A DNA stretch of 63,172 bases, counting the filler, from Stramenopiles sp. TOSAG23-6 (lineage: Eukaryota): the NCBI GenBank assembly GCA_900128565.1. It is 37 parts of 37 records of this genome, joined end to end, with 100 filler letters (N's around TTAATTAATTAA, not from the genome) between each part and the next. Parts side by side here need not be neighbours in the genome. Positions count along the whole stretch, not along the records: positions 56,482 to 58,079 come from LT638816.1; 36 more parts are not named here. The stretch is one strand, 5' to 3'. Positions 4,203-63,172 of this stretch are shown piece after piece. The translations under genes and the position numbers were made by a program. How positions within the stretch are numbered: position 1 is the stretch's first letter; each line of letters starts with the position of its first letter. The notes below the pieces were generated by a model, which worked only from the letters and a program-made list of their open reading frames with translations, did not search any database and had not been told where the DNA came from.

Positions 4203-4548
4203 TGAAGTCCAAATCTAACGTAACGATGATAATAATATATAAATGCGAATCAGAGATCGGACAGTGAAGCTTATTATCTTTACTGTTTGTTGCCGCCATA
4301 GATGCCATCAAAGGGAATTTCAATATTCAAGTCAAAATTTTGATTTAACGGACGTTCCGTTGCGGTTTTTCACCGTAGATCTCTAAATCGTCTAAAAATA
4401 TTTAATCTTGGAACGTAATCTGAAGCCGATCCTAATTCGTTATTATTTTCACATACAGAGCTCCTAAGAAAGAAGTGTCGACCTTTTTGGACTATCATAT
4501 AATAGTTTTTCCTTAAGGTATTGTGTGTACGTAGACACTCGATATAGA

Positions 4549-4971
4549 ATGGAAAACATTGAGCTCTCTACAGGACACTACGATAGTAGTAATTTTCTAT
4601 CCTTGAGTAGCTCAGAAATTGCACCAGCAGTGAAACAACAACAACGCAATACAACTAGTTTTTGTGGTTTTGTTGGCAAGCATAGTAAGAAACAAGAACA
4701 TAATTTAGCTTCATTGTGTGTCGAAGAATCAAAAGAATCAAAAAAATCAAAAAAATCAAAAAAAAAACTTTTATTTGATTCTAGACCATGTGAAGTACAA
4801 ATGGAGCAGTTGACACTACTGAGACTAAATGACAAAGCAGCAGCTTCCCAATTTCTGGACTCTGGTAAAAAAATTCTACATTTTGCAGCAATTGGTGATG
4901 TTCCTGGACTCTCGAAATTATTTCAAACAATGTATAAAATAGGGCAAGCAGGTCTTGATTGGTGGGGATAT
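4549..4971 (+). CDS. Hypothetical protein first exon, possible ankyrin-like repeat; divergent from the DUF179 gene
   Basis: ORF ending at AT|GTATGT donor; ILHFAAIGDV ankyrin-like motif. Confidence 0.45.
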
Positions 4972-5162
4972 GTATGTTTTATTATTTTTTTTTTACAATG
5001 AATTTTTTTTTCATACGAAATTTTGTACCTAACAAATTTTTTTAGATTTTTTTTTTGAAATANNNNNNNNNNNNNNNNNNNNNNNNNNNNNNNNNNNNNN
5101 NNNNNNTTAATTAATTAANNNNNNNNNNNNNNNNNNNNNNNNNNNNNNNNNNNNNNNNNNNN

Positions 5163-10218: not shown

Positions 10219-10882
10219 NNNNNNNNNNNNNNNNNNNNNNNNNNNNNNNNNNNNNNNNNNNNTTAATTAATTAANNNNNNNNNNNNNNNNNNNNNNNNNN
10301 NNNNNNNNNNNNNNNNNNCTTTCAGAAAATTATTTATTGCATTTCTAAAATTGATATTTTCTCTGTGAATTTAACAAACAATGCATTCGGAGATTGAAGT
10401 AAATTTTTATTTATTTATACCACAAAAAAAAGTCTTTATTCGTTTATTCAGTAAAAATGTGTTGCAATGATTATTGCATGTGTAGTATGAGTAATTCAAA
10501 ATGTTTTTTTTGTAATTTTGTTTTGTAAATTGTTTTTTTATAAATTGTTTTTAAATTACTTCACTTCCAGGGAAAGCACTGCACAATCAAGCATATAAAA
10601 TGCCTCGCTACTAACTCCACTACCTCCAGGATTTTCGCACAAATATGGAGCTCTACCAATGGATTGAATACTAAATAGTTCATCAGAGAGAAAATCTCTA
10701 CAGACTCTATTTACAAAACCTTCAAAAGTTTCATCACTTGGACATTTTTCAGATAATAAATTTTCTTCTGGTCCAGAGTACTACTTTATATTTTACCACA
10801 TAGCTATAGCCTATATATAGCTATAGTAGATTTGTTAAGATTGATTTATTATTTAAAAATTTTACTATAAAACTATAGAGAA

Positions 10883-11935
10883 TTATCCAAAATCTGTTAA
10901 TTGTATTTTAAGTTCCTTTACTCGGCGTGCTAATTTTCGGATTGTCGGTAATGTTTGCGCTTTTTCTAACATCCACAATCTGTTTTTTGCTGCAAGTTCT
11001 TCTCTTCTTCTTTCAAATTGTTTCTTTTGAGTTTTTATCCATTCTTCAGACTGATTTTCACTATTTTGTTTTTCATTCTCCTTCCCACTCAATGTCTCTT
11101 TTATTGTCAGCGTACTACCTTTCCTATTTGTCATTTTCTGCGTTGTATGTAATTTTGCAATTTCTTCTTCCACAAATCTAATTTCTTTTTTATCTGATTC
11201 TGCTTGCAGTTTCCTATGTTGCCATTGTCTCAATGAGTTTCCTATGACACGTAATTCAACACGAATTTCTTCAGCATAAGAATCATCAATTTTATGTATT
11301 GTGAAAAAGTACAAAATCAGAAAAAATCACAAAAAAAATCGTTAGGTACGAAATTTCGTATGAAAAAAAAACTAGATTTGAAATTGAAAAAAAATAAAAC
11401 ATACATGCACCCTAAAGGATGACTTTGATGTCTTCTTATCTAATTGTTTAGATTGTTCTATTTTTTGAGGATCTACAATTTTGGTCTTGGTTCCTTGTGG
11501 TGTAATGCTATAATATTCGTTGCTATTTTCTAAAGTAAATTTACTTTCGGCATTAGCATTTCGTCGTAGTTTCGTACGATGCTTAAAAAGATCATGTATT
11601 GTGAAAAAACAAATTAGTTAAGAAAAACTCGTTAGGTACGAAATTTCGTATGAAAAAAAAATTAAATTAGAAATTCATACGAAACGTACATATCTAGTGG
11701 GACTTAATTGTTGTTTTTGAAATAGATTGTTTTGTTGATTTTGTATAATGCTTTGAACTGGGCTATTATCATTCGATTTCATATAAGATTGTCCAGTCGA
11801 TTGATCTAGTACAAGCTCTACAGGACATCGCGGTGGGCGTCTCTCTCTTCTCTCTGGAAATTTCAAATACCAAGGTGAAGACAAAATTTCCTCTTGTGTC
11901 TGATTTGTTCCAGCATCTAATTTGTTTTTAGATGA
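10883..11935 (-). CDS. Coiled-coil hypothetical protein; GT-AT introns 11294-11404 and 11594-11689
   Basis: Three exons join in phase 0 at ...CACAATACAT acceptors. Confidence 0.65.
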
Positions 11936-12035: not shown

Positions 12036-13651
12036 CTTTCAGAAAATTATTTATTGCATTTCTAAAATTGATATTTTCTCTGTGAATTTAACAAACAATG
12101 CATTCGGAGATTGAAGTAAATTTTTATTTATTTATACCACAAAAAAAAGTCTTTATTCGTTTATTCAGTAAAAATGTGTTGCAATGATTATTGCATGTGT
12201 AGTATGAGTAATTCAAAATGTTTTTTTTGTAATTTTGTTTTGTAAATTGTTTTTTTATAAATTGTTTTTAAATTACTTCACTTCCAGGGAAAGCACTGCA
12301 CAATCAAGCATATAAAATGCCTCGCTACTAACTCCACTACCTCCAGGATTTTCGCACAAATATGGAGCTCTACCAATGGATTGAATACTAAATAGTTCAT
12401 CAGAGAGAAAATCTCTACAGACTCTATTTACAAAACCTTCAAAAGTTTCATCACTTGGACATTTTTCAGATAATAAATTTTCTTCTGGTCCAGAGTACTA
12501 CTTTATATTTTACCACATAGCTATAGCCTATATATAGCTATAGTAGATTTGTTAAGATTGATTTATTATTTAAAAATTTTACTATAAAACTATAGAGAAT
12601 TATCCAAAATCTGTTAATTGTATTTTAAGTTCCTTTACTCGGCGTGCTAATTTTCGGATTGTCGGTAATGTTTGCGCTTTTTCTAACATCCACAATCTGT
12701 TTTTTGCTGCAAGTTCTTCTCTTCTTCTTTCAAATTGTTTCTTTTGAGTTTTTATCCATTCTTCAGACTGATTTTCACTATTTTGTTTTTCATTCTCCTT
12801 CCCACTCAATGTCTCTTTTATTGTCAGCGTACTACCTTTCCTATTTGTCATTTTCTGCGTTGTATGTAATTTTGCAATTTCTTCTTCCACAAATCTAATT
12901 TCTTTTTTATCTGATTCTGCTTGCAGTTTCCTATGTTGCCATTGTCTCAATGAGTTTCCTATGACACGTAATTCAACACGAATTTCTTCAGCATAAGAAT
13001 CATCAATTTTATGTATTGTGAAAAAGTACAAAATCAGAAAAAATCACAAAAAAAATCGTTAGGTACGAAATTTCGTATGAAAAAAAAACTAGATTTGAAA
13101 TTGAAAAAAAATAAAACATACATGCACCCTAAAGGATGACTTTGATGTCTTCTTATCTAATTGTTTAGATTGTTCTATTTTTTGAGGATCTACAATTTTG
13201 GTCTTGGTTCCTTGTGGTGTAATGCTATAATATTCGTTGCTATTTTCTAAAGTAAATTTACTTTCGGCATTAGCATTTCGTCGTAGTTTCGTACGATGCT
13301 TAAAAAGATCATGTATTGTGAAAAAACAAATTAGTTAAGAAAAACTCGTTAGGTACGAAATTTCGTATGAAAAAAAAATTAAATTAGAAATTCATACGAA
13401 ACGTACATATCTAGTGGGACTTAATTGTTGTTTTTGAAATAGATTGTTTTGTTGATTTTGTATAATGCTTTGAACTGGGCTATTATCATTCGATTTCATA
13501 TAAGATTGTCCAGTCGATTGATCTAGTACAAGCTCTACAGGACATCGCGGTGGGCGTCTCTCTCTTCTCTCTGGAAATTTCAAATACCAAGGTGAAGACA
13601 AAATTTCCTCTTGTGTCTGATTTGTTCCAGCATCTAATTTGTTTTTAGATG
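12036..13651. repeat. Duplicate of contig 10319-11935
   Basis: Essentially identical sequence and ORFs. Confidence 0.95.
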
Positions 13652-13754
13652 ANNNNNNNNNNNNNNNNNNNNNNNNNNNNNNNNNNNNNNNNNNNNTTAA
13701 TTAATTAANNNNNNNNNNNNNNNNNNNNNNNNNNNNNNNNNNNNNNNNNNNNAC

Positions 13755-20714: not shown

Positions 20715-22164
20715 TGAAAGCTACGGATAAAATGAATCGTCTTATGAAAAATGCAGGAAAAAAAATCACCTCACATGTGGGAAAGAATAAAGATGTTCAT
20801 TTTTCTTCTAAAACTAAAAGAATGTATGTTTTCATCAATTCTAACTAATTATAGATAATGACGTACCTCAATGTTTTTTTTAATCTACATTTTTTTTATA
20901 GGAAATTTCGTACCTAACAAATTTGAAAAAAAAAATATACTTTTTTACAATGTGTGGTCGCAACATTTGAAAAAGATTCACATAATTTGAAACAAGTAAC
21001 TAGAAGTGGTTTGTCTCTGTTGATGCAAAGTCTTCAGCACGTAGAAAACAAAGCGAGTCTTCGAATTGTTCATTCAACAATATATCAGAAACATGTCGCT
21101 GTCAAGCATGTACATTTTNAAAATTGAATTTCAAATGTATATATATTTTTCATACTAAATTCCGTACCTAACGATTTTTTTTCGGTANAAAAAAAANATA
21201 TTTTTTCACAATACAGGGACATGTAGAAGAAGATCCCGATCCNACAAAATCAAGTGCAACTCAGCAAAATCTCGCTGCAGCTTCAATTATTGTTAATGCT
21301 GTGATGGATTTCAATACGGAAGTACGTTTTCATTATGAATTTTAAATTTCTTTTTTTTTATTCAAAACAAAATATACTAAACAAATTTCAAATTTGATAT
21401 AATTCCCCAAAATACATGTATTCTACTCTATGGACTGTGCTGCGGAAATTGTACTAGAAGATGGCAAAAATGTTGTAGTAGATACGACAGATGATATCTA
21501 TGGAAAAGAAGCTTCAGAACTTGTATCTGAAGTTGCTGAAGCACTCACTGATGATATATCTGTTGCTGGTACAATGTGTAAAATGGCAAGCATTGCCTCG
21601 TGTGGTACAACCACTGTAGTTGTAGGTATTGGCAAAAGCGCGATACATTTGAAAAATCGTTCAGAATGGGCGTCAGGCGATATCATTCAACAAGGGTTTA
21701 TGTACAGTTTACTTCCTCGAGAGTTATCAGATGTAATTAAAGTTGCTAAAAGTGTAAGCAAAAGCACAAAAGAAAAGGCAACCAATTTTTATCATCAAGG
21801 TCTGGAAAGTTTTCAAAAAATAAAAAAACAAACCTGGTTTCGCAAGGGTAAAGCAGTAGCTGCTGCAAAAGATCATGAAACACCTAAAACAACGAAAAAC
21901 AATGCGAAGGATATTATCGTACATGAAATGGATGGTGTAACAAAAGAAGCGGATGTAGTTGTGAATGTTGCAACAAAAGTGATTCTAAAATGGACCAAAG
22001 TCTGTATGTTTTATTTTTTTTTCAACTTCGTTTTTTTTTTCGTACGAAATTTTGTACCTAACGAAAAACAAATTGAAATATTTTTTCATAATATATGGTG
22101 TATTTTACGACAGGACACCTTTGCTGTATTTCAGGAAAAGCCAAAAAAAGATAACGCAGAAGAT
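20715..22164 (+). CDS. Multi-exon protein with PH-domain start; introns 20824-20955, 21110-21216 (AG), 21322-21417, 22004-22096
   Basis: Splicing restores KWTKV-W-CILRQDTFAVF (PH beta1/beta2 WxKxWxxL); the second W codon is formed across a GT-AT junction. Confidence 0.65.
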
Positions 22165-32721: not shown

Positions 32722-33634
32722 GTGCTGCATCGTTTTTAACTTTTCAAAGGCGTGAATCCGATTTTGAATTTATAGGTGTTGATTTCATCGCTGATGCGAC
32801 AACTGGATATGCGTACTTAATTGAATGTAACTGTCCACCGGATAATAAAGGATCAGTTGAGACCAAGGGTATTTTTTTTTTAGTACGAAATTTTGTACCT
32901 AACGATTTTTTTTTTCAAAATTTTTTTAGTACGAAATTTCGTACCTAACGATTTTTTTTTTTTTTTTTCAAATTTTTTTATATATATATATATATATATA
33001 TTTTTAGTTCTCATGATTTTTTTTTTTTACATAGTAAGTATATCACGAAATACATGAAATATTGTTGAGGAATTTCATCAAGGACTTTTCTCAGATTTGG
33101 TACAAACTTTCGTAGTTATACCTATCGTTAAAAAAAGAGCTCCGATAAATAACAAAAGAAACCCTACAAATAATATAAGTTTTCAAAATTAAATTTCAAA
33201 TTTAGTTTTTTTTTTCATACGAAATTTTGTACCTAACATTTTTTTTTTTTAAATATTTTCCTACATTTTTTCCCGATACAAATGAATGTGGATTATGGGA
33301 AAAAGTGGGCGAATTAAGTTCGAGTGATTGCAAAACACATACTCCAAATGTCGTGAATGAAATAATTCTGAAGAAAAAATTGAAAAAAAATGAAAAAAAT
33401 ATGGAAAAAAAAATTGAAAAAAAAATTGAAAAAAAAAATGGAAAAAAAAATGTTGAAAACCCTAACCCTAAAGAACCACAAGTCAAAGATGGTTTTACCT
33501 TTACTACATCAATTGAAGCTGAGTGTAAAGGAATTCTTGCAAGAAATCGATTACAATGGTTATTATATCAACGTAAAGCAATGAAACAACAAAAACACGA
33601 AATCCTAAAAAAAATCGAAACAATAAAAAAATGA
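32722..33634 (+). CDS. Tubulin-tyrosine ligase (TTL/TTLL) family, C-terminal exons
   Basis: FEFIGVDFIAD...AYLIECNCPP (ATP-grasp ExN motif). Confidence 0.8.
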
Positions 33635-44369: not shown

Positions 44370-45026
44370 GTACGTTTTTTTTATTATTATTTTTTTATAT
44401 AGTGTGTGTATAGTTTTCGTACGAAATTTTGTACCTAACCAAAAAAAAAAAAAAAAAAAAAAAAAAAANNNNNNNNNNNNNNNNNNNNNNNNNNNNNNNN
44501 NNNNNNNNNNNNTTAATTAATTAANNNNNNNNNNNNNNNNNNNNNNNNNNNNNNNNNNNNNNNNNNNNTCCTGTGGACTTCGGGTACAAGATATATTTTG
44601 GTACCCTACATTTTTGGCGCCAACGTCAACCCGAACCGGTCAAATAATTTTTGGAATCGAAATTCGAAAAAAAAAAAGTAACTGGTTTCCTTTTTTTTTT
44701 ACACGTGTGACTGCCGTGTGACTTGTCACTTACACAATATACAAGTGTAGCCTGTTAATTGTGTTGTTATTGACATACCTACTGTAGATACTACTACGAC
44801 CTCTCTTTTCTAGTGTATTGGTTACATAGATAACTCTACTACTGGTAAATATTAGGCCTATTCGTATATCAACTTGATCACGGCTTGTTCATAAGGCACT
44901 AGGGATAGCTATTGTTGGTCATATTATAAAAGGAACCGCTGTGGTTTTATTTGTTCATTAATATGTTTTGCGCTGATCTCTATACATATTAGAACGCCAA
45001 GCACTCACTATAGCTAGTTACCCATA

Positions 45027-46080
45027 ATGATGGCATATACAGTCGCTAGACGTGGGTTTTGCTCAGCACGAACTCTCTTGAAAGACAATCTTTGTTTGAC
45101 TTTTCCTGGTCAAGGGACTCAATACTATGGTATGGGCAAACAACTTTGTCATGATTTTCCTTTTGCGCGTTCTATTTTTGAACAAGCTGATGAAGCTCTT
45201 CAATATAACTTGTCTCGTCTAATGTTTTCAAGTCCCACTGACAATAACGACGACCAATCAACTTGTCTCTCTCAAACAGAGCATGCACAGCCTGCAATAT
45301 TAATACACTCCATCGCTACTCTTGCAATATTACGTGAAGAATGCGGATTAAATTTAACTTTTGATTCTGGGGTTGACAGTGCTGTCTCCGTAGTCCTTGG
45401 ACATTCTTTGGGGGAATATACTGCACTAGTTGCTTCTGGGTCGTTATCTCTAAGTGAAGGTGTACAGTTAGTACGATCAAGAGGTTTAGCGATGAGCAAT
45501 GCAGTTCCCAATGAAATAAAAACGTTAATGTCTGCTATGATGCCTACTACACGAAATGCTGTTTCTGAACTAATCCAGGAAGTTTCTAAAAACTTGGGCG
45601 AAGGACATGTTTGCAATATTGCTAATGTCAACTCAAGAAAGCAAGTTGTAATTAGTGGAACTAAAGCAGCTGTGGAGTTAATTGCCAAATTGGCCAAAGA
45701 AAGAAAAATATGTTTGTTTTCATCATTGAATTTCAAATTTGTTTTTTTTTTCATAGAAAATTTTGTACCTAACAAAAACAAATATTTTTGAAAATATTTT
45801 TTCACAATACATGTCGCAAAAGTATACCCTTAAAAGTGAGTTCAGCATTTCACTCCGATTTGATGGCTCCAGCAGTAGAAGAGTTGAAATTGGCCCTTTC
45901 AAATGTTTCTATTAAAACACCAACAATTCCAATTATATTTAATGTAGATGCGTTGGAACGTCCTCATAATGCAAAGATATCTATCGAGGGTAATGTAGAT
46001 AATATAGAGTATACTGATGATGTCGTTAAAAAATTATTACTCCGACAGATGGTTTCACCTGTTCTATGGCTAGATTCTAT
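45027..46080 (+). CDS. fabD: Malonyl-CoA:ACP transacylase (mitochondrial-type); GT-AT intron 45712-45812
   Basis: FPGQGTQ, AQPAI, GHSLGEY, QVVISG, I|CRKSIPLKVSSAFHS, SPVLW. Confidence 0.95.
45712..45812 (+). other. GT-AT intron in fabD
   Basis: T|GTTTGT...GTACCTAAC...CACAATACAT|GT; no AG between branch point and junction. Confidence 0.88.
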
Positions 46081-46272
46081 GTATGTTTTATTTTTTTTTT
46101 AAACAAAAAAATTCGATTTTTTTTTCATACGAAATTTTGTACCTAACAAATTTTAGTTTTTTTTTTTGAAATNNNNNNNNNNNNNNNNNNNNNNNNNNNN
46201 NNNNNNNNNNNNNNNNTTAATTAATTAANNNNNNNNNNNNNNNNNNNNNNNNNNNNNNNNNNNNNNNNNNNN

Positions 46273-47876
46273 TCCTGTGGACTTCGGGTACAAGATATAT
46301 TTTGGTACCCTACATTTTTGGCGCCAACGTCAACCCGAACCGGTCAAATAATTTTTGGAATCGAAATTCGAAAAAAAAAAAGTAACTGGTTTCCTTTTTT
46401 TTTTACACGTGTGACTGCCGTGTGACTTGTCACTTACACAATATACAAGTGTAGCCTGTTAATTGTGTTGTTATTGACATACCTACTGTAGATACTACTA
46501 CGACCTCTCTTTTCTAGTGTATTGGTTACATAGATAACTCTACTACTGGTAAATATTAGGCCTATTCGTATATCAACTTGATCACGGCTTGTTCATAAGG
46601 CACTAGGGATAGCTATTGTTGGTCATATTATAAAAGGAACCGCTGTGGTTTTATTTGTTCATTAATATGTTTTGCGCTGATCTCTATACATATTAGAACG
46701 CCAAGCACTCACTATAGCTAGTTACCCATAATGATGGCATATACAGTCGCTAGACGTGGGTTTTGCTCAGCACGAACTCTCTTGAAAGACAATCTTTGTT
46801 TGACTTTTCCTGGTCAAGGGACTCAATACTATGGTATGGGCAAACAACTTTGTCATGATTTTCCTTTTGCGCGTTCTATTTTTGAACAAGCTGATGAAGC
46901 TCTTCAATATAACTTGTCTCGTCTAATGTTTTCAAGTCCCACTGACAATAACGACGACCAATCAACTTGTCTCTCTCAAACAGAGCATGCACAGCCTGCA
47001 ATATTAATACACTCCATCGCTACTCTTGCAATATTACGTGAAGAATGCGGATTAAATTTAACTTTTGATTCTGGGGTTGACAGTGCTGTCTCCGTAGTCC
47101 TTGGACATTCTTTGGGGGAATATACTGCACTAGTTGCTTCTGGGTCGTTATCTCTAAGTGAAGGTGTACAGTTAGTACGATCAAGAGGTTTAGCGATGAG
47201 CAATGCAGTTCCCAATGAAATAAAAACGTTAATGTCTGCTATGATGCCTACTACACGAAATGCTGTTTCTGAACTAATCCAGGAAGTTTCTAAAAACTTG
47301 GGCGAAGGACATGTTTGCAATATTGCTAATGTCAACTCAAGAAAGCAAGTTGTAATTAGTGGAACTAAAGCAGCTGTGGAGTTAATTGCCAAATTGGCCA
47401 AAGAAAGAAAAATATGTTTGTTTTCATCATTGAATTTCAAATTTGTTTTTTTTTTCATAGAAAATTTTGTACCTAACAAAAACAAATATTTTTGAAAATA
47501 TTTTTTCACAATACATGTCGCAAAAGTATACCCTTAAAAGTGAGTTCAGCATTTCACTCCGATTTGATGGCTCCAGCAGTAGAAGAGTTGAAATTGGCCC
47601 TTTCAAATGTTTCTATTAAAACACCAACAATTCCAATTATATTTAATGTAGATGCGTTGGAACGTCCTCATAATGCAAAGATATCTATCGAGGGTAATGT
47701 AGATAATATAGAGTATACTGATGATGTCGTTAAAAAATTATTACTCCGACAGATGGTTTCACCTGTTCTATGGCTAGATTCTATGTATGTTTTATTTTTT
47801 TTTTAAACAAAAAAATTCGATTTTTTTTTCATACGAAATTTTGTACCTAACAAATTTTAGTTTTTTTTTTTGAAAT
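46273..47876. repeat. Exact duplicate of contig 44569-46172
   Basis: Identical sequence and ORFs. Confidence 0.95.
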
Positions 47877-48123: not shown

Positions 48124-49227
48124 ATCTCATCCGCTAAAATAGAGGATCGATTTTGAATCCAATTAAAAATTAACCAATTGACACCTTCTACTTGATAATC
48201 ACGAAGAACAAGACCTCTTTTTTTTGAATATGGACCAGAATTAGCAGTATAGAAATTATTTTCGATTTGTTTTGATTTTTTGTTTTTTTTCTTTTGATGA
48301 TGTTTTTTAGATTTTTTTTGTACTAGAAAAAAATCATCAAATTGTTTTTCTAGTCTTAATTTGTGTCTATTATATATTGATATAATTGTTGTATCATTAA
48401 TATCCTCAATTGTTTCCCATGAACATGTATTTTGAAAAAATAGTTCAAAAAAATCTAAAAAAAAATTGTTAGGTACAAAATTTTTTTACGAAAAAAAAAC
48501 AAAAAAAAAAAAATAATTTTGAAAAAATATTTTGAAAATTTTTTTACGAAAAAAAACCAAAAAAAAAAAATAATTTTGAAATTCATGATGAAAACAAACA
48601 TGAATCATATCCTAACGATCCACCCCATTTTACTAAATATTCATATTTTGGTTGTTTTTTATTTGTAGGATATTTTTGAAATGGTTTATTTCCATTTTTT
48701 TTACATTTAGGGCAAAACCAATTTTGATCTTGGCAATTATCTATAGTATAATCTACACAAATTTGATGATACGTCATATCACAACCATCACAATATACAA
48801 TATCTTCTCCATTATCATATATTTTTGGAAAATATTTGAAAAAAAAAAAAACTGTTAGGTACAAAATTTCGTATGAAAAAAAAAAAACATAATAATTTGA
48901 AAAAAAAAATATTTGAAAAAAAAAAAAAAATGTTAGGTACAAAATTTCGTATGAAAAAAAATATTATAATAATTTGAAAAAAAAAAAAAAAAAAACATAC
49001 TCCTCCTTGACACACAGAACAAGTAAACTTCCCACCACATTCAAACGCACTACATATAAATTTACCTTTTGGAATTTTTTTTAATCCTATACATTGTTGA
49101 TGATAGGCTCGAGAACATTTTCCTTCACAAATGACATTTATTTTGGGAAAATATTTAAAAAAAATTTTGAATTTCAAATTTGTTAGGTACAAAATTTTTT
49201 TACGAAAAAAAACCAAAAAAAAAAAAA

Positions 49228-49279
<52 letters not shown>

Positions 49280-49519
49280 ATACATGCCTTGTGGAAAAAA
49301 AAAATTTTGAATTTAAAATTTTTTAGGTAAAAAATTTTTTTACAAAAAAAAACCAAAAAAAAAAAAATTTTTTTTTTTTTTTTTTGAAAAATAAATAATA
49401 AAAATAAATAATAAAAACGTACAATATCATTACCCTCAGACGTATCACCACCACCACATAAACAACAGAATATATCTTCTTCTTCGTCGTCGTCCTCATC
49501 AGCAACACGTTGACCAACA
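48124..49519 (-). CDS. CHD-type chromatin remodeller fragment (two PHD fingers, chromodomain, SNF2 start); introns 48425-48599, 48817-49000, 49136-49422
   Basis: [86 protein letters not shown]...SILADE. Confidence 0.92.
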
Positions 49520-51464: not shown

Positions 51465-52110
51465 CGAAATCGAACAATATGTTAGGGTTAGGGTTGTTAG
51501 GGTTTTCTGCATTATGAAAACAAACATGAGAATAATACAGGCTCTTGAGATACAACACCAATGTTTCGTCGTAATGCAACAGGACCACCAGGATATTCGC
51601 GAATATTACGACCCCCAACAAAAATATCGCCATGTAATTTTAGGAAAATATTTCAAAAAAAAAATTGATTTTTTTGTTAGGTACAAAATTTCGTACGAAA
51701 ACCATAAAAAAAAAAATTTCAAATTCAAATTTTGAAAACGTACATCTAAAGGGTCATATAATCGACTAATTAATGCAGTGACTGTCGATTTCCCACATCC
51801 ACTGCCACCGACTAATGCCAGATGATGCCCTGCCGGGATTTTTAATGACAAATTTGAAAGTACAGGTACAGACCTGCGCGTCGGATATGAAAAATGAATA
51901 TTTTTTAATTCGATCTCGCCAAGGTTAGGATTATTTGGATTATTTTGATTATTAGTTTTAACAACAATGTTTTTATATTCTTCTTCTATTTTTTTCTCTT
52001 GTTTTGAAAATATCTCAAAGTCCATTGGAATTTTCTTCATATCAACAGGAGAAGTCATTGAAGGTATTCTATCTAAAATTGTAAATAAACGTGAAGATGT
52101 TTTGTGAAAA

Positions 52111-52145
<35 letters not shown>

Positions 52146-52219
52146 GAAAAAAAAAAATTTGTTTGGGAAAAAATTTTTTTTTAAAAAAAAATTTTTTCCC
52201 AAACAAATTTTTTTTTTTC

Positions 52220-52254
<35 letters not shown>

Positions 52255-52268
52255 TTTTCACAAAACAT

Positions 52269-52839
52269 CTTCACGTTTATTTACAATTTTAGATAGAATA
52301 CCTTCAATGACTTCTCCTGTTGATATGAAGAAAATTCCAATGGACTTTGAGATATTTTCAAAACAAGAGAAAAAAATAGAAGAAGAATATAAAAACATTG
52401 TTGTTAAAACTAATAATCAAAATAATCCAAATAATCCTAACCTTGGCGAGATCGAATTAAAAAATATTCATTTTTCATATCCGACGCGCAGGTCTGTACC
52501 TGTACTTTCAAATTTGTCATTAAAAATCCCGGCAGGGCATCATCTGGCATTAGTCGGTGGCAGTGGATGTGGGAAATCGACAGTCACTGCATTAATTAGT
52601 CGATTATATGACCCTTTAGATGTACGTTTTCAAAATTTGAATTTGAAATTTTTTTTTTTATGGTTTTCGTACGAAATTTTGTACCTAACAAAAAAATCAA
52701 TTTTTTTTTTGAAATATTTTCCTAAAATTACATGGCGATATTTTTGTTGGGGGTCGTAATATTCGCGAATATCCTGGTGGTCCTGTTGCATTACGACGAA
52801 ACATTGGTGTTGTATCTCAAGAGCCTGTATTATTCTCAT
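52269..52839 (+). CDS. ABCB-type ABC transporter NBD fragment; GT-AT intron 52622-52733 (mirrored copy on minus strand)
   Basis: [40 protein letters not shown]. Confidence 0.93.
52666..52689 (+). repeat. Dispersed conserved intron core TTCGTACGAAATTTTGTACCTAAC (representative copy; dozens in the window, oriented with the host gene)
   Basis: Visible directly, and as recurring peptides VRNFVPN / SYEILYLT in the ORF track. Confidence 0.97.
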
Positions 52840-53083: not shown

Positions 53084-54683
53084 GAGTTAAAGATAAATTC
53101 AAGCTCTTTGGTAGACAAATCGTTTTACTAAACGCGCAAGAAAAAGCGACAAATGAATCTGAAGGCGCGATGCGTACATTGGAATCTATGTACAAAGATA
53201 AATCAAATGAGTTGGCAAGTTTTACAGCTGAAGCTTCCATACGGAAAATTGAAATTATCTCGAAAGTCAAAGATAAATTCAAGCTCTTTGGTAGAAAAAT
53301 AATTGTTCGNNNNNNNNNNNCCGCCGCTAGAAAATTTGAACTCATTATGAGAGTCAAAGATAAATTTAAACTCTTTGGTCGACAGATTATTTTACAAAAT
53401 GCAAAGGAGAAAACACTCAAAAATGCAGAAAGTGTACTTAGATATGTACAATCTTTTTATGATAAAAAATCAACTGAGTTGGTCAATATATTTGCGGAAT
53501 CTGCTTCTCGAAAATTTGAACTAATTATGAGAGTCAAAGATAAATTCAAACTGTTTGGTCGACAGATTATTTTACACAATGCAAAGGAGAAAACAGTCGT
53601 TGATGCAGAAGGATCTTTGAAACATTTGGAATCCACGTACAACGGTAAATCATTTGAGTTAACTGGTGTATCAGCTGAATGTGCAATTCGAAAGATTCAA
53701 GATGTGACAACAAACAAGATGACTGAAAAGAATGCGTTGGTGAGCGAAACAGCAGCGAGAAAGATTGAAATTGTAGCGAAAGTCAAACATAAATTCAAGA
53801 TCCTTGGTAAACAAATCATTCAACGTAATACGCAAGGCAATGCGGTGAATGCTGCTGAAGCATCTTGGCGAAATACAAATGCAATACTCCAATACAAATC
53901 AATTGAATTGGTGAACTTTACAGCAGAGGTGTCTGCTCGGAAGGAGGAAGCAGTGCAATCATTAAAATTGAAACAGTATCATGCACAAAAATATATTGCT
54001 TTGCAAATATTACATGTAACTTCAATAAACTTTGATGGTATATGGGTATCATTAGACTTGATACGCAAAATGTACAATACTTACATTGCAAAACTTATCT
54101 ATTTACGAAGGGTGAAGGGTAAATTTCAGTTCGTTGGTAGAAAAATAATTGTTCGAAATGGACAACAAAAAGCTGCTAATGATGTGGAGGCTGCATTACG
54201 TAGTTCCGGGAAAATGCTTCATAATAAATCTATTGAATTGTCTGGTATATCATCAGAGAATGGAATAAGACAAATTGAATACTTGACAATCAACAAGCTT
54301 ATTGAAAAGGATGCGTTGGTGAGTGAAGCGGCATCTAGACGATGGGAACTCATTATGAGAGTCAAAGATAAATTTAAACTTTTTGGTAGACAAATAGTTT
54401 TACTCAATGCGCAAGATAAAGCGGCGAATGATGCCGATGCAGCAATGCGTAATTTGATGGCTCTTCATCGAAATAAACAATATGAAGTTGCCGCTCGAAC
54501 AGTTGAAGTAGTTGCTAGAAAGATCGAAGTGGTAGCTTTAAAAAAGATGATTGAAATGAATGCTGTACTAACAGAATCTGCTACTCGCAAATTTGAACTA
54601 ATTATGAGAGTCAAAGACAAATTCAAACTCTTTGGCAGAAAAATAATTGTTCGTAATGCAGCTCTTAACGCAATTAATGAAGG
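53084..54683 (+). CDS. Repetitive alpha-helical protein fragment with recurring RKFELIMRVKDKFKLFGRQI motif
   Basis: Single open frame; about eight copies of the motif. Confidence 0.8.
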
Positions 54684-55025
54684 NNNNNNNNNNNNNNNNN
54701 NNNNNNNNNNNNNNNNNNNNNNNNNNNTTAATTAATTAANNNNNNNNNNNNNNNNNNNNNNNNNNNNNNNNNNNNNNNNNNNNGTATTTTGGAAAAATAT
54801 TTCAAAAAAAAAAATATCGTTAGGAACAAAATTCCGTACGAAAAAAAAAATTATTTACTAAAAGAAAAAAAAAAAAAAAAACATTGAATTTTTAATTTTT
54901 TTTTTTTTTTTAATTTTTTTTTTTGATTTTTTATAATAATAATGATGATAATAATATAAATCCTTCCGAGTAAATCTGAAGCTGTAAAGAATAAATACAG
55001 AAATCATATTTTATTAATTTATTTC

Positions 55026-56293
55026 TTAAAGCATATATTCATCGCGCAAAGCATTAGCTAAATAATCAACCTTCAATTGCTCTTCGATATCTTCAAAATA
55101 AACAAATTCCATCTTTTGTATTTTGGAAAAATATTGCAAAAGAAAAAAATTTTAATTTGTTAGGTACAAAATTTCGTATGAAAAATAAATTCAATTTCAA
55201 AATTAAAAAAAAAAATAAAACATACATCATTCTCTAAAAATTGAATACGTTGCTGCAATGCGCTAAGCGTAGCATCACATGTATTGTGAAAACATATTTA
55301 AAAAAAATTGTTAGGTACGAAATTTCGTATGAAAAAAAAATAAATTAGAAATTCATATCAAACGTACATTCTCTATCGATATATTCTTTATATCGTTTTG
55401 GACTACATCCCTTATCTCTCCTTGGAATATAGTATAGGAAAATATTTTTAAATGTTTTTTGTTAGGTTCAAAATGTACAAAAAACAAATGAGGTAAGACA
55501 TTTTGCATTTTGAAAAAGTACATTCCCCATAGACATTCTTGTATCAAGATAATGTATTTTAGAAAAATATTTCAAAAAAAAAATTGAAAAAAATCGTTAG
55601 GTACAAAATTTCGTACGAAAAATAATTTCGATTTTTTTTTTTCGGTAAAAAAAAAATAAAACATACATACCTTCCCTAGGACTTACCCGTCGCTTGGCGT
55701 CATGAGTGAGAAATGCTCGAGCCACTTTTTCAACTTTGGATATATTGTAAAAAAATATTGTTCAAAATTTTTATTTTTTTTGTTACGATATACATTTTTC
55801 ATAGTAAAAAAAAATTAGAAATTTCATTTTTCATAGTAAAAAAAAATTAGAAATTTAATTTCATTTTTCATAGTAAAAAAAAATAGAAATTTAATTTTGA
55901 AAACTGTACAATAGCCTGGAGGTAAAGGTGGTACCGTTGTTCTCAAATGTGGTGGTATCAGCGATTTTTTGTCTGTTTCCCAAGGATGTGGTAAACCTAG
56001 TAACTCATAATTTGTGAAGAAATATTTGAAAAAAAATGTTTTTTGTTAGGTATACAATTTTGTAAAAAAATGAATTTTTTTTTTTTTTTTTCGTAAAAAA
56101 AAAACCTACATATATTGTACAACCAATTCCCCAAATATCAGCTTTTCTATAATCATACACCGGTGATGTTTCAGAAGCACTGGCTACTTCTGGGCTCATA
56201 TTAGCTGGATTACCTTCCCGCGTACTAGGCAATAATGTTTTACAGCTGCATCCGAAGTCTATCAGTCTAATCTCACCAACACGGTGAAGCATT
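55026..56293 (-). CDS. Ser/Thr protein kinase, C-terminal part in seven exons
   Basis: IRLIDFG, NMSPE, DIWGIGCTIY|ELLG.PHPW, LTHDAKRRVS; introns include 56007-56109 (GT-AT); 30-nt exon at 55522-55551. Confidence 0.9.
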
Positions 56294-56481
56294 ATATATT
56301 ATGAAAAAATATTTCAAAATTTTTCTAAAAAAAAAATCTTTTTAGTTTAGGTACAAAATTTTTTTACCAAAAAAAAAAAATNNNNNNNNNNNNNNNNNNN
56401 NNNNNNNNNNNNNNNNNNNNNNNNNTTAATTAATTAANNNNNNNNNNNNNNNNNNNNNNNNNNNNNNNNNNNNNNNNNNNN

Positions 56482-56878
56482 TTTAAAATTTTTTTTTCGT
56501 AGGTAATTTTGTACCTAACATTTTTTTTTTTTTAATATTTTTTTTTAGACATTCAATTGACAGGAATTGAAATCCCTGGAGCCATGCATGGAATTATGTT
56601 ACCAGGTAACCTGAGATCTTCAAAATCGTTACCCGGTCAACTGTATGAAAATGCAACACAAGAGAGATTTCGTGATCAGATGATTGATCGCATTAACACT
56701 GCTAGTACTTTATTACGACAACAAGCTTTTATTGATCGATCATACTACTCAAAAACAACACCTGATTTAGTTCGTTTACAATTTGAATTAATTTGGTTAG
56801 AAATTAGTATGTTTTTTTTTTCAACTATTTTCCAAAATTTTTTTTTTTTTTTTTTCATACGAAATTTTCATAGTAAAA

Positions 56879-56914
<36 letters not shown>

Positions 56915-57338
56915 TTTTTTAAAATTTTTTTCACAAATTATTTTTACTATGAAAATTTCGTATGAAAAAAAAAAAAAAAAAATTTTGGAAAATAGTTGAA
57001 AAAAAAAACATACTAATTTCTAACCAAATTAATTCAAATTGTAAACGAACTAAATCAGGTGTTGTTTTTGAGTAGTATGATCGATCAATAAAAGCTTGTT
57101 GTCGTAATAAAGTACTAGCAGTGTTAATGCGATCAATCATCTGATCACGAAATCTCTCTTGTGTTGCATTTTCATACAGTTGACCGGGTAACGATTTTGA
57201 AGATCTCAGGTTACCTGGTAACATAATTCCATGCATGGCTCCAGGGATTTCAATTCCTGTCAATTGAATGTCTAAAAAAAAATATTAAAAAAAAAAAAAT
57301 GTTAGGTACAAAATTACCTACGAAAAAAAAATTTTAAA
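56482..57338. repeat. Inverted duplication (fold-back chimera, centre ~56910)
   Basis: Same exon on both strands. Confidence 0.88.
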
Positions 57339-57978
57339 TTTTTAAATTACATAAATTAGGGTTAGGGTTAGTATAACATACATACTATCATATATTGCAA
57401 GTAACGTTGATCTTGGTAAATTATCACCCATATATTGTGGAGATATATTTTATACTTGATTGTTTTATTAAGTATACAATTTGGTACAAAAAAAAAAAAA
57501 AAAAATTAAAAAAATTAAAAAAAAAAAAAAAAGTCTAAAAATTTAAAAAAAAAAAACATACAATGGCTGTGGTGGAGGATCACAATTTTCATTTTGTTTG
57601 ATCCAATCCATAACTGTCATTTTTTTCTTTACAAGTGGATTATGCATTGATGTATTCAACAAAATTGTTGTATTGTGAAAAAATATTTTTTTTTTTAATT
57701 TTATTAGACACAAAATTTTATTTTTTCTGTAAAAAAAAAAAAAAAAAAAAAAATTTAAATTTTTAAATTTTGTTAGGTACAAAATTTCGTACGAAAAAAA
57801 AAAAAAAAACTTCAAAACATACTTGAATAGGATAAAAAGTAAACAGTATCAGGATGTGAAAAACATCCTGGATTATCTAAATAGTATTGTTCTGAAAAAG
57901 CCACAATTAGACGTTCTATTTTTTGTGCTTCTTTAGGTAACATAAAACCGCCAAATGATGAAACGAAATATTTCAATA
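57012..57978 (-). CDS. Sec7-domain ARF-GEF fragment; intron 57668-57822 (GT-AA) plus two GT-AT introns
   Basis: FMLPKEAQKIERL, DTVYFLSYS|TILLNTSMHNP.VK.KMT, GDNLPR..L..IYDSI. Confidence 0.92.
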
Positions 57979-58026
57979 TTTTTTTGTTAGGTACAAAATT
58001 TTTTTAAAATTTTTTTTCATAGTAAC

Positions 58027-58079
<53 letters not shown>

Positions 58080-58179
58080 NNNNNNNNNNNNNNNNNNNNN
58101 NNNNNNNNNNNNNNNNNNNNNNNTTAATTAATTAANNNNNNNNNNNNNNNNNNNNNNNNNNNNNNNNNNNNNNNNNNNN

Positions 58180-59777
58180 ATCTGTTACAATAGCAGCACG
58201 GTATTCATATTTTAGATCGTGAATACGATGTCTTCCTGCAGTCCAAGATATATCTGTAATATCCAGTGTGTACTCACTGTTTTTAATATAGTTATTATAT
58301 CGTTTTGCTGTGGAAGGAATGTTTTTATGGTGTGTAGTAGAAATTGGGATAATACAAACTTGATCTTTGTACTTTGGATTTCTAGACTTCTCTTTGGAGT
58401 TCCTTGAGACCTGATATTGTTGGAGAACAACATGCGCATTTGTTCCACCAAATCCGAAGGCACTTGTTCCGACGACTGTTCGACCTTTAGTTGGTCCATC
58501 ATTTAGAGTCTCTCCCTTTGTGATTATATGGACACCCATCTCATCAAACGGTATATGCTCATTCGGGGTATTCATGTTGAGGCTTGGAGGTATCCAATTA
58601 TGATATAAAACAAGCACCGTCTTCAATATATTGGCAATTCCTGCCGCAGCTTCTAAATGTCCTATATTCGTTTTGACACTACCTACTCGCAATGGTCCTT
58701 CTTTATAGACCGATCGTCCGCAATTTTGGACAAATACACGTCCTAAAGCAGTCAACTCAATTGGATCACCAAGTTTAGTACCAGTACCGTGTGCTTCAAT
58801 ATACGCCACATCCGCCGGCGATATTTTTGCATCCTTATATGCTTTATCCAATACATTTTCCTGTGACGCGGGATTTGGAGCAGTTAGTCCATTGCTGCGA
58901 CCATCTTGATTGACTGCACTTCCTCGTATTACAGCATACACTATATCATCATCTCGAGATGCATTCTCAACTCTCTTGATAACTACCATTCCACAGCCTT
59001 CGCCACGGGCGTATCCATTCGCTAGATTATCACCAAATTTCACTTTATTTTCTGGCGAAAGCATTCCTGCGGCTCGAAATGCAGAATATGTGCGGGGATT
59101 AAAAAGAAGATTTACTCCTCCTACTAAAGCGGAGTTAATATCCCCACTCCTTAATGCTTGTATGGCATTATGCAAAGCTACTAATGAAGAAGAGCAAGCT
59201 GTATTTATACTGACACTTGGACCCTGAAGGTTAAATGTGTAAGATATACGATTTGCAACAATACTTAAGTCAGTTCCAGTTCCTACAAAAGGGCTGTCAG
59301 TATCTAAGCTAGTGATATTATGATAATCACACGCAGAAACACCCATGAAAACTNNNNNNNNNNNNNNNNNNNNNNNNNNNNNNNNNNNNNNNNNNNNNNN
59401 NNNNNNNNNNNNNNNNNNNNNNNNNNNNNNNNNNNNNNNNNNNNNNNNNNNNNCAATACGTTGTTGTGGGTCCATTTGACATGCTTCTGCATGAGAAATT
59501 CCGAAAGCGGCTGCATCAAAACTCGATATAGTTTTTTCTGACAAAAAAGCCCCGCCTCCTCTAAGGTTAACACGATAAGATGGAGGGGTGTTGGACATTG
59601 CACTTACACCTTTTCTTAGCATTCTCCAAAATGCCTCAGGTGAATCCACTGATCCTGGGAAACGGCAGGACATACCCGTCACCGCAATCAAAGATTTATT
59701 AAAATGTGTATGTCTGGGTAGTTTAATGACTTTTAATCTATTCGGTTTATCAACAGTATTGGAATTGTCTTTCTCGG
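58180..59777 (-). CDS. Type I polyketide synthase ketosynthase domain plus KS-AT linker
   Basis: MSCRFPG, MDPQQR, NTACSSSL, EAHGTGTKLGDPIE, KTNIGHLEAAAG, SAFGFGGTNAH. Confidence 0.95.
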
Positions 59778-60223
59778 NNNNNNNNNNNNNNNNNNNNNNN
59801 NNNNNNNNNNNNNNNNNNNNNTTAATTAATTAANNNNNNNNNNNNNNNNNNNNNNNNNNNNNNNNNNNNNNNNNNNNCTTCTCGCGACGTCCATGCGGCT
59901 TGCTCCGATTGGTCAACACACTGACAAACGACCAAAATGTATTCCTGATACATCTTTGACTACATTAAAAGATAAAGATGTGGGACTACAGAAGTCAACA
60001 GTAGTTCAACGTGTAGAAGATAATGCCCCCCTGAGTGCACTGGAAACACAGGAGTTAGGAAAATCACTATATATTGCGGCTTCTCNNNNNNNNNNNNNNN
60101 NNNNNNNNNNNNNNNNNNNNNNNNNNNNNNNNNNNNNNNNNNNNNNNNNNNNNNNNNNNNNNNNNNNNNNNNNNNNNNNNNNNNNNNNNNNNNNNNNNNN
60201 NNNNNNNNNNNNNNNNNNNNNNN

Positions 60224-61474
60224 CTTCTCGCGACGTCCATGCGGCTTGCTCCGATTGGTCAACACACTGACAAACGACCAAAATGTATTCCTGATACATC
60301 TTTGACTACATTAAAAGATAAAGATGTGGGACTACAGAAGTCAACAGTAGTTCAACGTGTAGAAGATAATGCCCCCCTGAGTGCACTGGAAACACAGGAG
60401 TTAGGAAAATCACTATATATTGCGGCTTCTCATAGAGATACTTTTACAGGTGAAAAAGATATTGGTGAGTGGGTAGCTTTTGAAAGTGATAGAATTGCAC
60501 CATTTGGTAAGCGAGTAGGCGTTAAACAGCATAAATATGGAATTGGAAAGCTAATTGTACTTTTTTTTTTTTTTTCGAAATTATTTATTTTTTCATAGAA
60601 AATTTTATTCTCGACGATTTTTTTATCCAACAAAAAAAAACAAATATATATATATATTCACAATACATGATGTGTGTGTTGATCAAAATCCTCCAAAGAT
60701 TTGGCGGACTGGAAGTATCATTAAGTTTACAAATACTTCAATATTTGTAGAGTTTTGTGACAAATTACCTACCAAAAGTAGTTTTTTTAATTACATGGGT
60801 GTTGGTGGCAATAAGTCACCTGCAAATATTTGGATTGATTGTGTAAAACATAAAACATGTTTGTTTTTTTTTTTTTNGAATTTCATTTTTTTTTTTTTGA
60901 ACCAAATTTTTTACCTAACAAAAAACAAATATATTTTTCACAATACATGTCTTGCTCCTGCGTTTACAATGGCGAAAGCTGCAGATAATCAATTGACTGA
61001 AGGTGCATTGGTTGCTAGTGTCAGCGATGTTTCATTTCGGAATTTGTTAGAAAAACATGGAGGATTTAAAGTGTATGATATAGAAGCTGATGGAAATTGT
61101 TTATTTCGTGCAATTGCACATCAAATATTTGGTGATGTTTCCATGTGTCATGTATTTTTTTTTTTTCAATTTCAAATTTTTTTTTTTATAAAAATTTCGT
61201 ACCTAACAAAAACAAAAACAAAAATATTTTTTCACAATACATGTAATGAGAAAAAGATGTTGCGATTATATGGAGGCAAACGAATTGTATTTTTGCCAAT
61301 TCATTGAGACTAAGTGTAGTCATGTTGATGTAGGAAAAAATCAAAATGATCAAATTTATCAAATTGATCAAAATAGTATTGATATTACTGAAATGAAAAC
61401 CAATGAAATAATACAAAACAATGAAATAGAAAAAAACAATGAAATAGAAACAAACAATGAAACAAAACAAACCA
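60224..61474 (+). CDS. OTU-domain deubiquitinase (OTUD5-like); GT-AT introns 60557-60668, 60859-60948, 61152-61242
   Basis: ADGNCLFRAIAHQIFGD...H|VMRKRCCDYM..N..YF..FI. Confidence 0.88.
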
Positions 61475-61613
61475 ANNNNNNNNNNNNNNNNNNNNNNNNN
61501 NNNNNNNNNNNNNNNNNNNTTAATTAATTAANNNNNNNNNNNNNNNNNNNNNNNNNNNNNNNNNNNNNNNNNNNNCGAAAAATAAATTCGAAATTGAAAA
61601 AAATAAAACATAC

Positions 61614-61749
61614 AACCTCATACTCAACTTCTTTCCAACCAAGCATTGAACGTTCAACGAGAATTTGTGGCGAAACAGAGAGAGCTTTTGCTGCCATATC
61701 AAGCAAATGGTCATGAGAATTACAAATTCCAGACCCAAGACCACCAAGC
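61614..61749 (-). CDS. Single internal exon of carbamoyl-phosphate synthetase large chain/CAD
   Basis: LGGLGSG.C...[18 protein letters not shown]. Confidence 0.92.
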
Positions 61750-61840
61750 ATTTTGGAAAAATATTTCAAGAAAAATATCGTTAGGTACAAAATTTCGTAC
61801 GAAAAATAAATTTGAAATTGAAAAAAAAAATAAAACATAC

Positions 61841-63118
61841 ATTTCTAACTCTTTGCGCTTTCTTTCTTTTTTAATTCGTTCGTCCTCCTGAAGTTTCATT
61901 TGATATTTTTGCAATTTAATCATACGTCTATGTATTATGAAAAAATATTATTTTTAGTAAAAATTTGTTAGGTACAAAATTTGGTACAAAAAAATATTCG
62001 AAATTCAATTTTGAAAACGTACATGCTTTGACTGCGCTCGTTCTAATGCCTCTTGTTTAGCTAGTTTCTGTGCAGCCCACTCTTGCTTTTCCTTTCGCCG
62101 TTTGGATCTCTCTTCTAATTCCTTCATTCGTTTTTCTTTTTCACGTCTCATTCTTTCAAATTGTGCTTTAGTTTCCTCTCTTTCTTGTAATATTTCATCT
62201 CGTTTTTTCTTTTGGGCTAATTCGCGTTGAGCTTTCGTCACTCTTATTGCTTTACGCCATTTTTCTTTCTCAGCAGCTTTATCCTCTGCCTCTTTATATC
62301 GCTTTATTTCGGCTGCTTTTTCTTCTTCCCTTCGTCGCTTTTCGACTCTTTTTTTTGCCTTTTCTAATCTTTTATCTCTTATTCTTCTCTCTTCTATTAT
62401 CTTTAATTTCTTTTCGTATTTGCTTAGTTCTTCAGCAGCTTTTCTTTTCAATTCCTTAGCTTTTCTTTCTATTTCACGTTCTCTTGCATCAGCTATATTA
62501 TCAATCTTTTCCTGAACTGAAGTCTTCCAGGCTTCATTTTTCATTTTAACATCATCAAGATATTCTTCTGTTTCAAGTCTGTGTGAAGTTGTTGGTCGAA
62601 GAGCAGGGTCTTGGTAAACAGCTTTGGGTTGTCTACGACTCATCTTCCAGCTTCGACGTTTTTTCCTTTGTTGACGCGTTTTAGAATTTCGTTTTAATAA
62701 ATTTGTATCATCTGGCGTTTCAGGTCTTTCATATAAACTATGTCTTAATTCTTTGAGTTCTCGTATGTCTTCTTGCATCTTTTCCTCTTGTGCAATCCGT
62801 TCTTTTTCAAACTTTTTCTCTAGTTTTTCTTTTTCTATTTTTTTGAACATATCCATTTCTTTTTTTACATCTGAGCTTTTCATATCTTTGCTCATTTTTA
62901 CACCGGATGCCAAAGCTTTCATCCGTGCTTCCGTTTGAGCTCTAATAATTTCTTGGGTCACAATTTCTTCAGCCTTTTTAGCAATGTTTTCATCTGCAAT
63001 TTCAGTCACAGTTAAAGAAATGACTCTTTCCCAAGTCTCTTCAGATGCAAAATCAGCTAATGATTCTTCAACAATTTCTTGAACAACTTCAGTGAGAATT
63101 GGCTTCCCATAGTCTGTC
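61841..63118 (-). CDS. Charged coiled-coil (K/E/R-rich) protein; GT-AT intron 61930-62022
   Basis: Long K/E/R-rich ORF; exons in phase. Confidence 0.7.
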
Positions 63119-63172
63119 ATGTATTTTGGAAAAATATTTCAAAAAAAAAAACTAAAATTTGTTAGGTACAAA

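Follow-up and report, generated by a model that had tools for sequence, protein, structure and literature searches.

The stretch of DNA analysed here (the window; 63,172 nucleotides, filler included) comes from an AT-rich marine protist, has a GC content of 21-37% per 2 kb, and consists of contigs of about 1.6 kb ordered by falling size and joined by runs of N around a 12-base linker, TTAATTAATTAA. Because several contigs occur twice (e.g., 3444-5062 and 5163-6781; 10319-11935 and 12036-13652; 44569-46172 and 46273-47876), copy counts within the window need de-duplication. The contig at 56482-58079 carries a Sec7 gene on its minus strand, and this gene bears the predicted GT-AA intron that is the subject of this analysis. 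The left 401 bases of the contig (56482-56882) are an exact inverted copy of 56938-57338, and another folded-back contig was observed with mirrored open reading frames (ORFs) at 51606-52280 (-) and 52085-52759 (+). Such inverted copies are probably artefacts or chimeras of amplification or assembly rather than biology, and the one in the Sec7 contig leaves the GT-AA intron untouched. Three RNA and eight DNA sequencing runs match the stretch 53200-63172, with the RNA runs X7-X9 containing 7-13% of its words.

Four exons of the Sec7 gene can be read on the minus strand. Exon A (57823-57954), reading ...GGFMLPKEAQKIERL...YFLSYS plus one base, is placed by Pfam, by tblastn, and by comparison with residues 1464-1508 of a related protein, P0001 (87% identity), and its 5' limit at 57954 comes solely from the degenerate ...TCAT end of the upstream intron. 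Exon B (57562-57667), (T)ILLNTSMHNPLVKKK...PPPQP(L), is placed by Pfam, by PDB alignment, and by P0001, while exon C (57382-57429), GDNLPRSTLLAIYDS, and exon D (57014-57267) are placed by comparison with P0001. Exon D runs up to the next GTATGT, at 57013, beyond which the contig becomes an inverted copy of itself. The Pfam Sec7 profile (PF01369; curated cut-off 22 bits) matches the ORFs of both exon A (profile positions 82-133, E 7.3e-13, 49 bits) and exon B (131-162, E 6.4e-07, 29.6 bits) above the cut-off, and the two matches meet at positions 131-133. The solved structures matching these exons are ARNO, cytohesins, and yeast Sec7. P0001, the one close relative returned by a full HMMER search (2014 residues), aligns by tblastn to all four exons over about 180 residues with the right spacing; it is a gene model (EukProt name g2963.t1), neither a sequenced protein nor a cDNA. 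Word-based searches in which exon A was compared with longer proteins, and the exon-B ORF with ones of similar length, found no transcript-derived protein of this gene, nor did the full HMMER search; the search of longer proteins was limited to 2000 residues, just below the length of P0001. A metagenome scan found one further, more distant Sec7 locus (L001; 67% identity), which has a GT intron at a different site and whose contig stops short of the GT-AA junction.

The intron between exons A and B belongs to the dominant repeat-intron family of the window, the members of which start with GTATGT, contain a hairpin with a GTACCTAAC box, and end in a CAMAATAY box plus two bases. As placed by family alignment and a scan of possible junctions, it occupies 57668-57822 on the minus strand (155 nt) and runs from GTATGT to CACAATAC-AA. 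Along that strand the sequence reads ...CCTATTCAA|GTATGTTTTGAAG ... TTTTTTCACAATACAA|CAATTTTGTTGAATACA..., with the G of GT at 57822 and the last A at 57668; exon A ends in TATTCAA (57829-57823) and exon B begins with CAATT at 57667. The 5' splice site GTATGT (57817-57822) is the family consensus, and the extended 5' end, GTATGTTTTG (57822-57813), matches the family GTATGT(TTT) and aligns with the other copies. A family hairpin with a branch-site-like box, CGTACGAAATTTTGTACCTAAC (57772-57793), is located 104 nt upstream of the end of the intron. The branch module recurs in degenerate form as TTTTGTGTCTAAT (57703-57715), and there the branch A is 36 nt from the end, which is the usual family distance. 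Copy alignment and motif counts identify the 3' box CACAATAC (57670-57677) as the exact family consensus; its extended form, TTCACAATAC (57679-57670), fits TTCAMAATAY, and the exon starts two bases past the box. Those two bases (57668-57669) are the intron-terminal AA, where the family has AT, and the CAA at the exon end (57823-57825) is a direct repeat of the CAA at the intron end (57670-57668). Aligned with 13 other family copies, the intron agrees with them in three places, namely its 5' end, its 3' box, and the hairpin/branch box. It is atypical in its length (155 nt versus about 90-140 nt), in the distance of its strong branch module from the end (104 nt versus 32-48 nt), and in having about 60 extra bases between the strong branch box and the 3' box relative to the aligned copies, an insert that contains the degenerate second branch module; a T-run with an AG of canonical appearance is a further atypical trait. 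Two other long curated copies measure 175 and 184 nt. Its fold pairs the two ends, yet no better than shuffled sequences do (z -0.83), and its inverted repeat is GTAT/ATAC, 4 bp.

Exons A and B must be joined, because the exon-A ORF stops four codons into the intron (after SSMF). Joining TCAA to CAATT gives YFLSYS-T-ILLNT in the minus-strand translation, the same peptide as in P0001, which has FLSYSTILLNTSMHNP at residues 1504-1519 and reads ...DTVYFLSYSTILLNTSMHNP. The exon-B frame matched seven solved chains, six of which also matched exon A (4a4p_A, 1bc9_A, 4oiy_A, 3ltl_A, 3l8n_A, and 1xt0_B), and in all six the last residue of exon A (S) and the junction T fall on consecutive residues (e.g., 139/140 in 4oiy_A), with neither gap nor overlap. 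The first-pass annotation of this DNA had described a GT-AA intron at 57668-57822 within the Sec7 domain that restores the exact spacing of a Sec7 motif, and both descriptions hold: the sequence is as described, Pfam Sec7 matches lie on both sides of the predicted junction, and the six solved chains and P0001 agree there. When all combinations of 5' positions 57840-57806 and 3' positions 57740-57641 (35 x 100 = 3500 pairs, 858 of them stop-free) were scored against P0001, the top score of 355 was reached only by four registers that give a single mRNA, namely GT..AA, AG..CA, AA..AC, and CA..TA, the last three lying one to three bases upstream of GT..AA. Since the top score is common to four registers, the direct repeat is CAA/CAA, the C of which is family consensus. 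The exon end thus does mirror the terminal AA, as had been proposed, but the repeat extends over three bases and leaves four registers with the same mRNA. The sequence, the family membership, and the sole junction that reproduces the peptide of the relative are direct observations.

The shared mRNA raises the alternative that another register of the same repeat is cut (e.g., AA...AC, the counterpart of the AT-AC reading of typical members), with different chemistry. Termini of the AT...AC type are known from minor-type and rare major-type introns, and for the AT/AT members they correspond to a register shifted by two bases. This alternative is nevertheless unlikely, given that the termini would here be AA...AC and not AT...AC, that GTATGT is a textbook major-type 5' site, that an AT...AC reading of the adjoining TT|GT...AT intron would alter the peptide, and that the branch box is placed at 32-48 nt from the end instead of at the short distance typical of minor-type introns.

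The first-pass annotation had also held that no AG or AT option nearby fits the frame, which stands for AG, where a stop follows about three codons on, but not quite for AT. Shifting both cuts by four bases produces a GT-AT intron with 5' GTTTTG (GT at 57818-57817), 3' ...CAACAAT (AT at 57665-57664), an AT exon end, and the peptide YFLSYSSILLNT (YSSILLNT); the junction words would be ...TTCAAGTAT joined to TTTGTTG, with the junction AGTATTTTG. With this intron the frame stays open and the length is unchanged; it scores 351 versus 355 against P0001, regains the AT/AT pattern of the family, and has a parallel in the third Sec7 intron, which likewise has two registers four bases apart. However, it exchanges a perfect GTATGT for a weak GTTTTG, cuts six bases past the box where validated copies cut at two, and places S at the junction residue where P0001 has T, and we consider it quite unlikely to be the register in use.

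The AG at 57728-57729 resembles a canonical acceptor, being preceded by 23 T and located about 44 nt past the strong branch box. It is the sole AG in the 3' half of the intron, and its junction is absent from the top-scoring stop-free junctions of the P0001 scan. Were this gene copy dead or mis-spliced, the T-run and this AG, suitably placed behind the strong branch box, might be used and the message truncated. Such an outcome is highly improbable in view of the four open exons, which align to P0001 over about 180 residues at the correct spacing, and of the AGs between the last branch box and the intron end that are passed over in 6 of the 23 curated family introns.

Throughout the window, GTACCTAAC occurs 62 times (0.11 expected) and the strict 3' box TTCAMAATAYAW 19 times (0.84 expected); 18 of these boxes are followed by AT and only that of the Sec7 intron by AA (57669-57668). 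The consensus of a 14-copy alignment is ATGTATGTTTTATTTTTTTTT ... CnTACGAAATTTTGTACCTAAC ... AAATATTTTTTCACAATACATG, and copies sit in ORFs of Sec7, ABC transporter, kinase-like, kinesin-like, TTL-like, and other types. The family motif gave one chance match only in prokaryote genomes (a Bacteroidales MAG, L002) and none in the viral contigs scanned, and a search of the window with Rfam returned no snRNA or other RNA genes. Acceptor dinucleotides following CAMAATAY, for which a genome-wide count had been suggested, were counted within the window: after 23 unique exact boxes located behind a branch-like box, AT was found 19 times, AA twice, AG once, and GC once, the GC case being a shifted-register artefact. 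By its sequence, the GT-AA intron appears to be a rare variant of the repeated AG-less introns of this genome.

A curated set was assembled from 23 unique complete introns with both ends present, leaving out duplicates and copies cut by contig ends. At the register two bases past the box, 22 of the 23 have an open frame for 20 codons in both directions (the remaining one meets a contig end), a count that is not independent because curation itself used the reading frame. A crude automatic pass had placed 11 of 26 introns in frame, the failures being mostly mis-picked sites that were corrected by hand for the curated set. Several copies were dropped, listed here by branch-box coordinate. At 20911 the exon ends in AT and the intron in GT or TG; at 21165 the box is followed by AG and the upstream frame is ambiguous; at 34720 a GA exon end goes with a diverged box that ends in AAT; at 34567 the 5' site is ambiguous; and at 61787 two frames are open downstream, with an AT or a TT end. 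The copies at 2781/2842 and 49189/49329 are out of frame or in tandem. All 23 curated introns have A at position -2, followed by T in 20 cases and by A in three. The distance from the branch A to the intron end varies from 32 to 48 nt, while the end stays two bases past the box. These figures fit the earlier proposal that the last base is flexible and that the site is set by the box, or by the box together with the branch module.

The A at 57668 was read from one assembly. Were it a miscalled base, a misassembly, or a rare variant, with AT as the true end, this would account for the only AA among 19 exact TTCAMAATAYAW boxes; the short contigs, some duplicated or folded back, point to modest assembly quality. 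Two more ends in the window have a box plus AA (at 55116 and 33281), however, and the sequence itself bears no sign of error, making this explanation rather improbable.

Homology places the junctions of some other family introns as well. The next Sec7 intron (57430-57561 (-), 132 nt) reads TT|GTATGT...CACAATAT-AT|, with a peptide spacing that agrees with P0001, and the ABC-transporter intron at 52622-52733 reads AT|GTACGT...ATTACAT, with D59 projecting to 1053 and G1 aligning at 1054 of 5ko2_A. Both AT-ending junctions are thus placed at the level of the residue, by P0001 and 5ko2_A respectively, and both lie two bases past the box; the ABC-transporter intron (AT/AT) was validated after the curated count and is outside the 23. 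Comparison of the kinesin-like and kinase-like junctions with solved structures left, in each case, one flanking exon unaligned at the junction. The third Sec7 intron (57268-57381 (-), 114 nt) starts with a tandem GTAT-GTATGT, and its favoured form is AT|GTATGT...AGACAT|, giving YDSIQLTG where P0001 has YDSIVHAG; the alternative four bases away, 57385-57272, is a GT..AG intron (TTTAG|) giving YDNIQ. The P0001 peptide favours the AT end, so an AG four bases upstream would be skipped.

Two further family copies have AA after their box. The first, at 55116-55225 (-), ends in CAAAATAC-AA behind an AT exon end and has an in-frame AG three bases downstream of the AA; searches, including a word search of the last exon against longer proteins, found no homologue to fix its junction. 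The second, a candidate at 33179-33281 (+), ends in CCCGATAC-AA; the exon end before it is AA as well, and its 5' site, GTTTTC, is weak. It lies downstream of an exon resembling tubulin-tyrosine ligase, which scores 19.2 bits with Pfam TTL where the cut-off is 20.1 bits, and no homologue was found against which to check this junction.

The AA that ends exon A had been taken by the first-pass annotation as the product expected of a target-site duplication. An AA is informative in this respect because AT is its own reverse complement, whereas for AA a direct repeat predicts AA/AA and an inverted repeat AA/TT. Exon end and intron end are identical in 17 of the 23 curated introns (permutation p 0.023), 15 of these being AT/AT. 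Exon ends other than AT occur in 7 of the 23, and both AA ends among them recur as the last two bases of the intron (p 0.012 in a post hoc test); one such pair is that of 33179-33281 with its candidate GTTTTC 5' site. The other five (TT, TT, CT, CT, and GA) precede AT-ending introns, and three dropped introns with readable ends would add three mismatches. A duplication of three bases finds no excess in a by-eye hand count, position -3 being matched in 7 of 16 pairs versus about 5.6 expected. The predicted AA/AA repeat is present at the Sec7 site, but five of the seven non-AT exon ends are uncopied; these five, together with the AT exon end before the AA-ending intron 55225-55116, mean that a strict 2-base duplication is not supported in the window. 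A looser model is possible, in which duplication at insertion was followed by selection or conversion towards AT. For the Sec7 intron, the chances are just short of even that the exon-end CAA arose when a GTAT...ATAC element inserted at an AA target and duplicated those two bases.

Alternatively, the junction may be the same and its mirror coincidental, the element having brought its own ...ATACAT end without any 2-base duplication, the last base having changed from T to A, and the exon happening to end in AA. The five uncopied exon ends and the AT exon end before 55225-55116 fit this explanation, as does a 3' region that is exact consensus save for its last base, which is what a single point change would leave; taken by itself, the Sec7 intron would show such a match by chance in about 2 of 23 cases, as calculated from the curated set. 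What speaks against coincidence is that both curated AA exon ends pair with AA intron ends, with the post hoc p value and the candidate 5' site given above, and that AA/AA is a direct repeat and not the inverted AA/TT pair of a terminal inverted repeat. Coincidence has, in our estimate, a substantial though minority probability.

Considered together, these data suggest that 57822-57668 (-) is probably a spliceosomal intron of the dominant repeated, introner-like family, with TCAA joined to CAATT and the 3' cut made at a register fixed by the box. We infer both the splicing at 57822-57668 and the choice of GT..AA among the four equivalent registers. In the proposed mechanism, a major-type spliceosome would recognise GTATGT and the TACTAAC-like branch box, and the 3' cut would be placed by the conserved 3' box and the branch module, with A required at position -2. 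The cut would fall at a fixed register two bases past CACAATAC, seven past TTCAC, and about 36 nt past the branch-like box. The final base would be free (T usual, A tolerated, and G perhaps), and AG dinucleotides as such would not be sought. After removal of 57822-57668 the Sec7 helix would read YFLSYSTILLNT, and the predicted junction words are ...CCTATTCAA joined to CAATTTTGTTG, with the junction TCAACAATT. By analogy with the tunicate Fritillaria borealis, divergent U2AF paralogues are the obvious candidate for the reader of the TTCACAATAC box. More tentatively, splicing and insertion can be combined in one scheme, which we regard as possible but on balance doubtful: the spliceosome would ignore the last intron base and cut two bases past the 3' box, A at -2 being enough, such that a GTAT...ATAC element would turn any copied AN target dinucleotide into a working intron end. 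The AA here, and AT in most cases, would then be insertion footprints, with later conversion restoring AT in many copies.

Repeated introns with comparable features have been described in other eukaryotes. The introners of Chrysochromulina sp. bring a 5' splice site of their own and gain the 3' site through the target-site duplication (Gozashti et al. 2022, PMC9860276). The introns of the present family resemble them as near-identical short introns in unrelated genes with their own GT end and a short direct repeat (CAA/CAA here). They differ in that an ordinary AG is co-opted in Chrysochromulina sp. and the duplication spans 4 bp, whereas here the end is AT or AA, at most two repeat bases are informative, and the repeat is missing in five of the seven introns where it can be distinguished from the consensus. 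The introner elements of Amoebophrya are non-canonical, RNA-supported introns with direct repeats of 3-5 nt over their borders (Farhat et al. 2021, PMC7789003). Shared with them are repeated introns without GT-AG ends; candidate direct repeats at the borders and inverted terminal repeats would be further parallels. In contrast, Amoebophrya elements have no fixed end dinucleotides on either side and carry inverted repeats of 8-20 nt, while the family described here has a canonical GTATGT, an inverted repeat of just GTAT/ATAC, and a conserved branch box and 3' box. In the tunicate Fritillaria borealis, non-AG 3' ends are routinely accepted by the spliceosome, which is ascribed to U2AF subunits that have duplicated and diverged (Soo et al. 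2026, PMC13326754). About 95% of Fritillaria introns break the rule at both ends, whereas here only the 3' end does so and a single repeat family is dominant. The non-canonical introns of Fritillaria are reportedly of transposon origin.

Minor-type (U12) introns have the 5' sequence /RTATCCTT (ATATCC/GTATCC type) and a branch box ending in TAAC near the 3' end. The present introns are similar to U12 AT-AC introns in their non-AG ends and in a strongly conserved branch box ending in TAAC. A U12 identity is unlikely on the basis of the GTATGT 5' site, a branch box 36 or 104 nt from the end (32-48 nt in the family), and an end in the GT register that is AT or AA and not AC.

To our knowledge, nearly all spliceosomal introns end in AG, which is read directly by the splicing machinery, and none of the literature searched describes a repeat-intron family of the GT-AT or GT-AA type from a marine protist. 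A main family that ends in AT, with AA members at the same register, would show that the 3' cut is placed by a nearby box and not by the terminal dinucleotide. The Sec7 intron adds one variant to this family, and a useful one, since its junction is fixed to the residue by a close relative and its AA separates a direct from an inverted repeat. Standard gene finders that assume GT-AG introns will mis-predict most genes of this organism.

Several other observations were made in the window. An exact CACAATAC box at 21207-21216 (+) is followed by AG in the same 2-base register, in an intron that contains N and has an ambiguous upstream frame. At about 49136-49330 (-), two family copies stand in tandem: the sequence CCACAAGGCAT, which ends the first, runs straight into the GTATGT of the second without an intervening exon. 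Insertion of a younger copy into the AT|G junction of an older copy would produce such an arrangement. Telomere-like TTAGGG/CCCTAA repeats occur at 57356-57371, inside the third Sec7 intron, and near 9250, at the end of another contig piece. The contig neighbouring the Sec7 gene encodes, at 58180-59352 (-), 391 uninterrupted residues of a ketoacyl synthase (PF00109, PF02801, and PF16197); this stretch is without a family intron, has a higher GC content (0.40), and may be a long exon or DNA from a foreign source.
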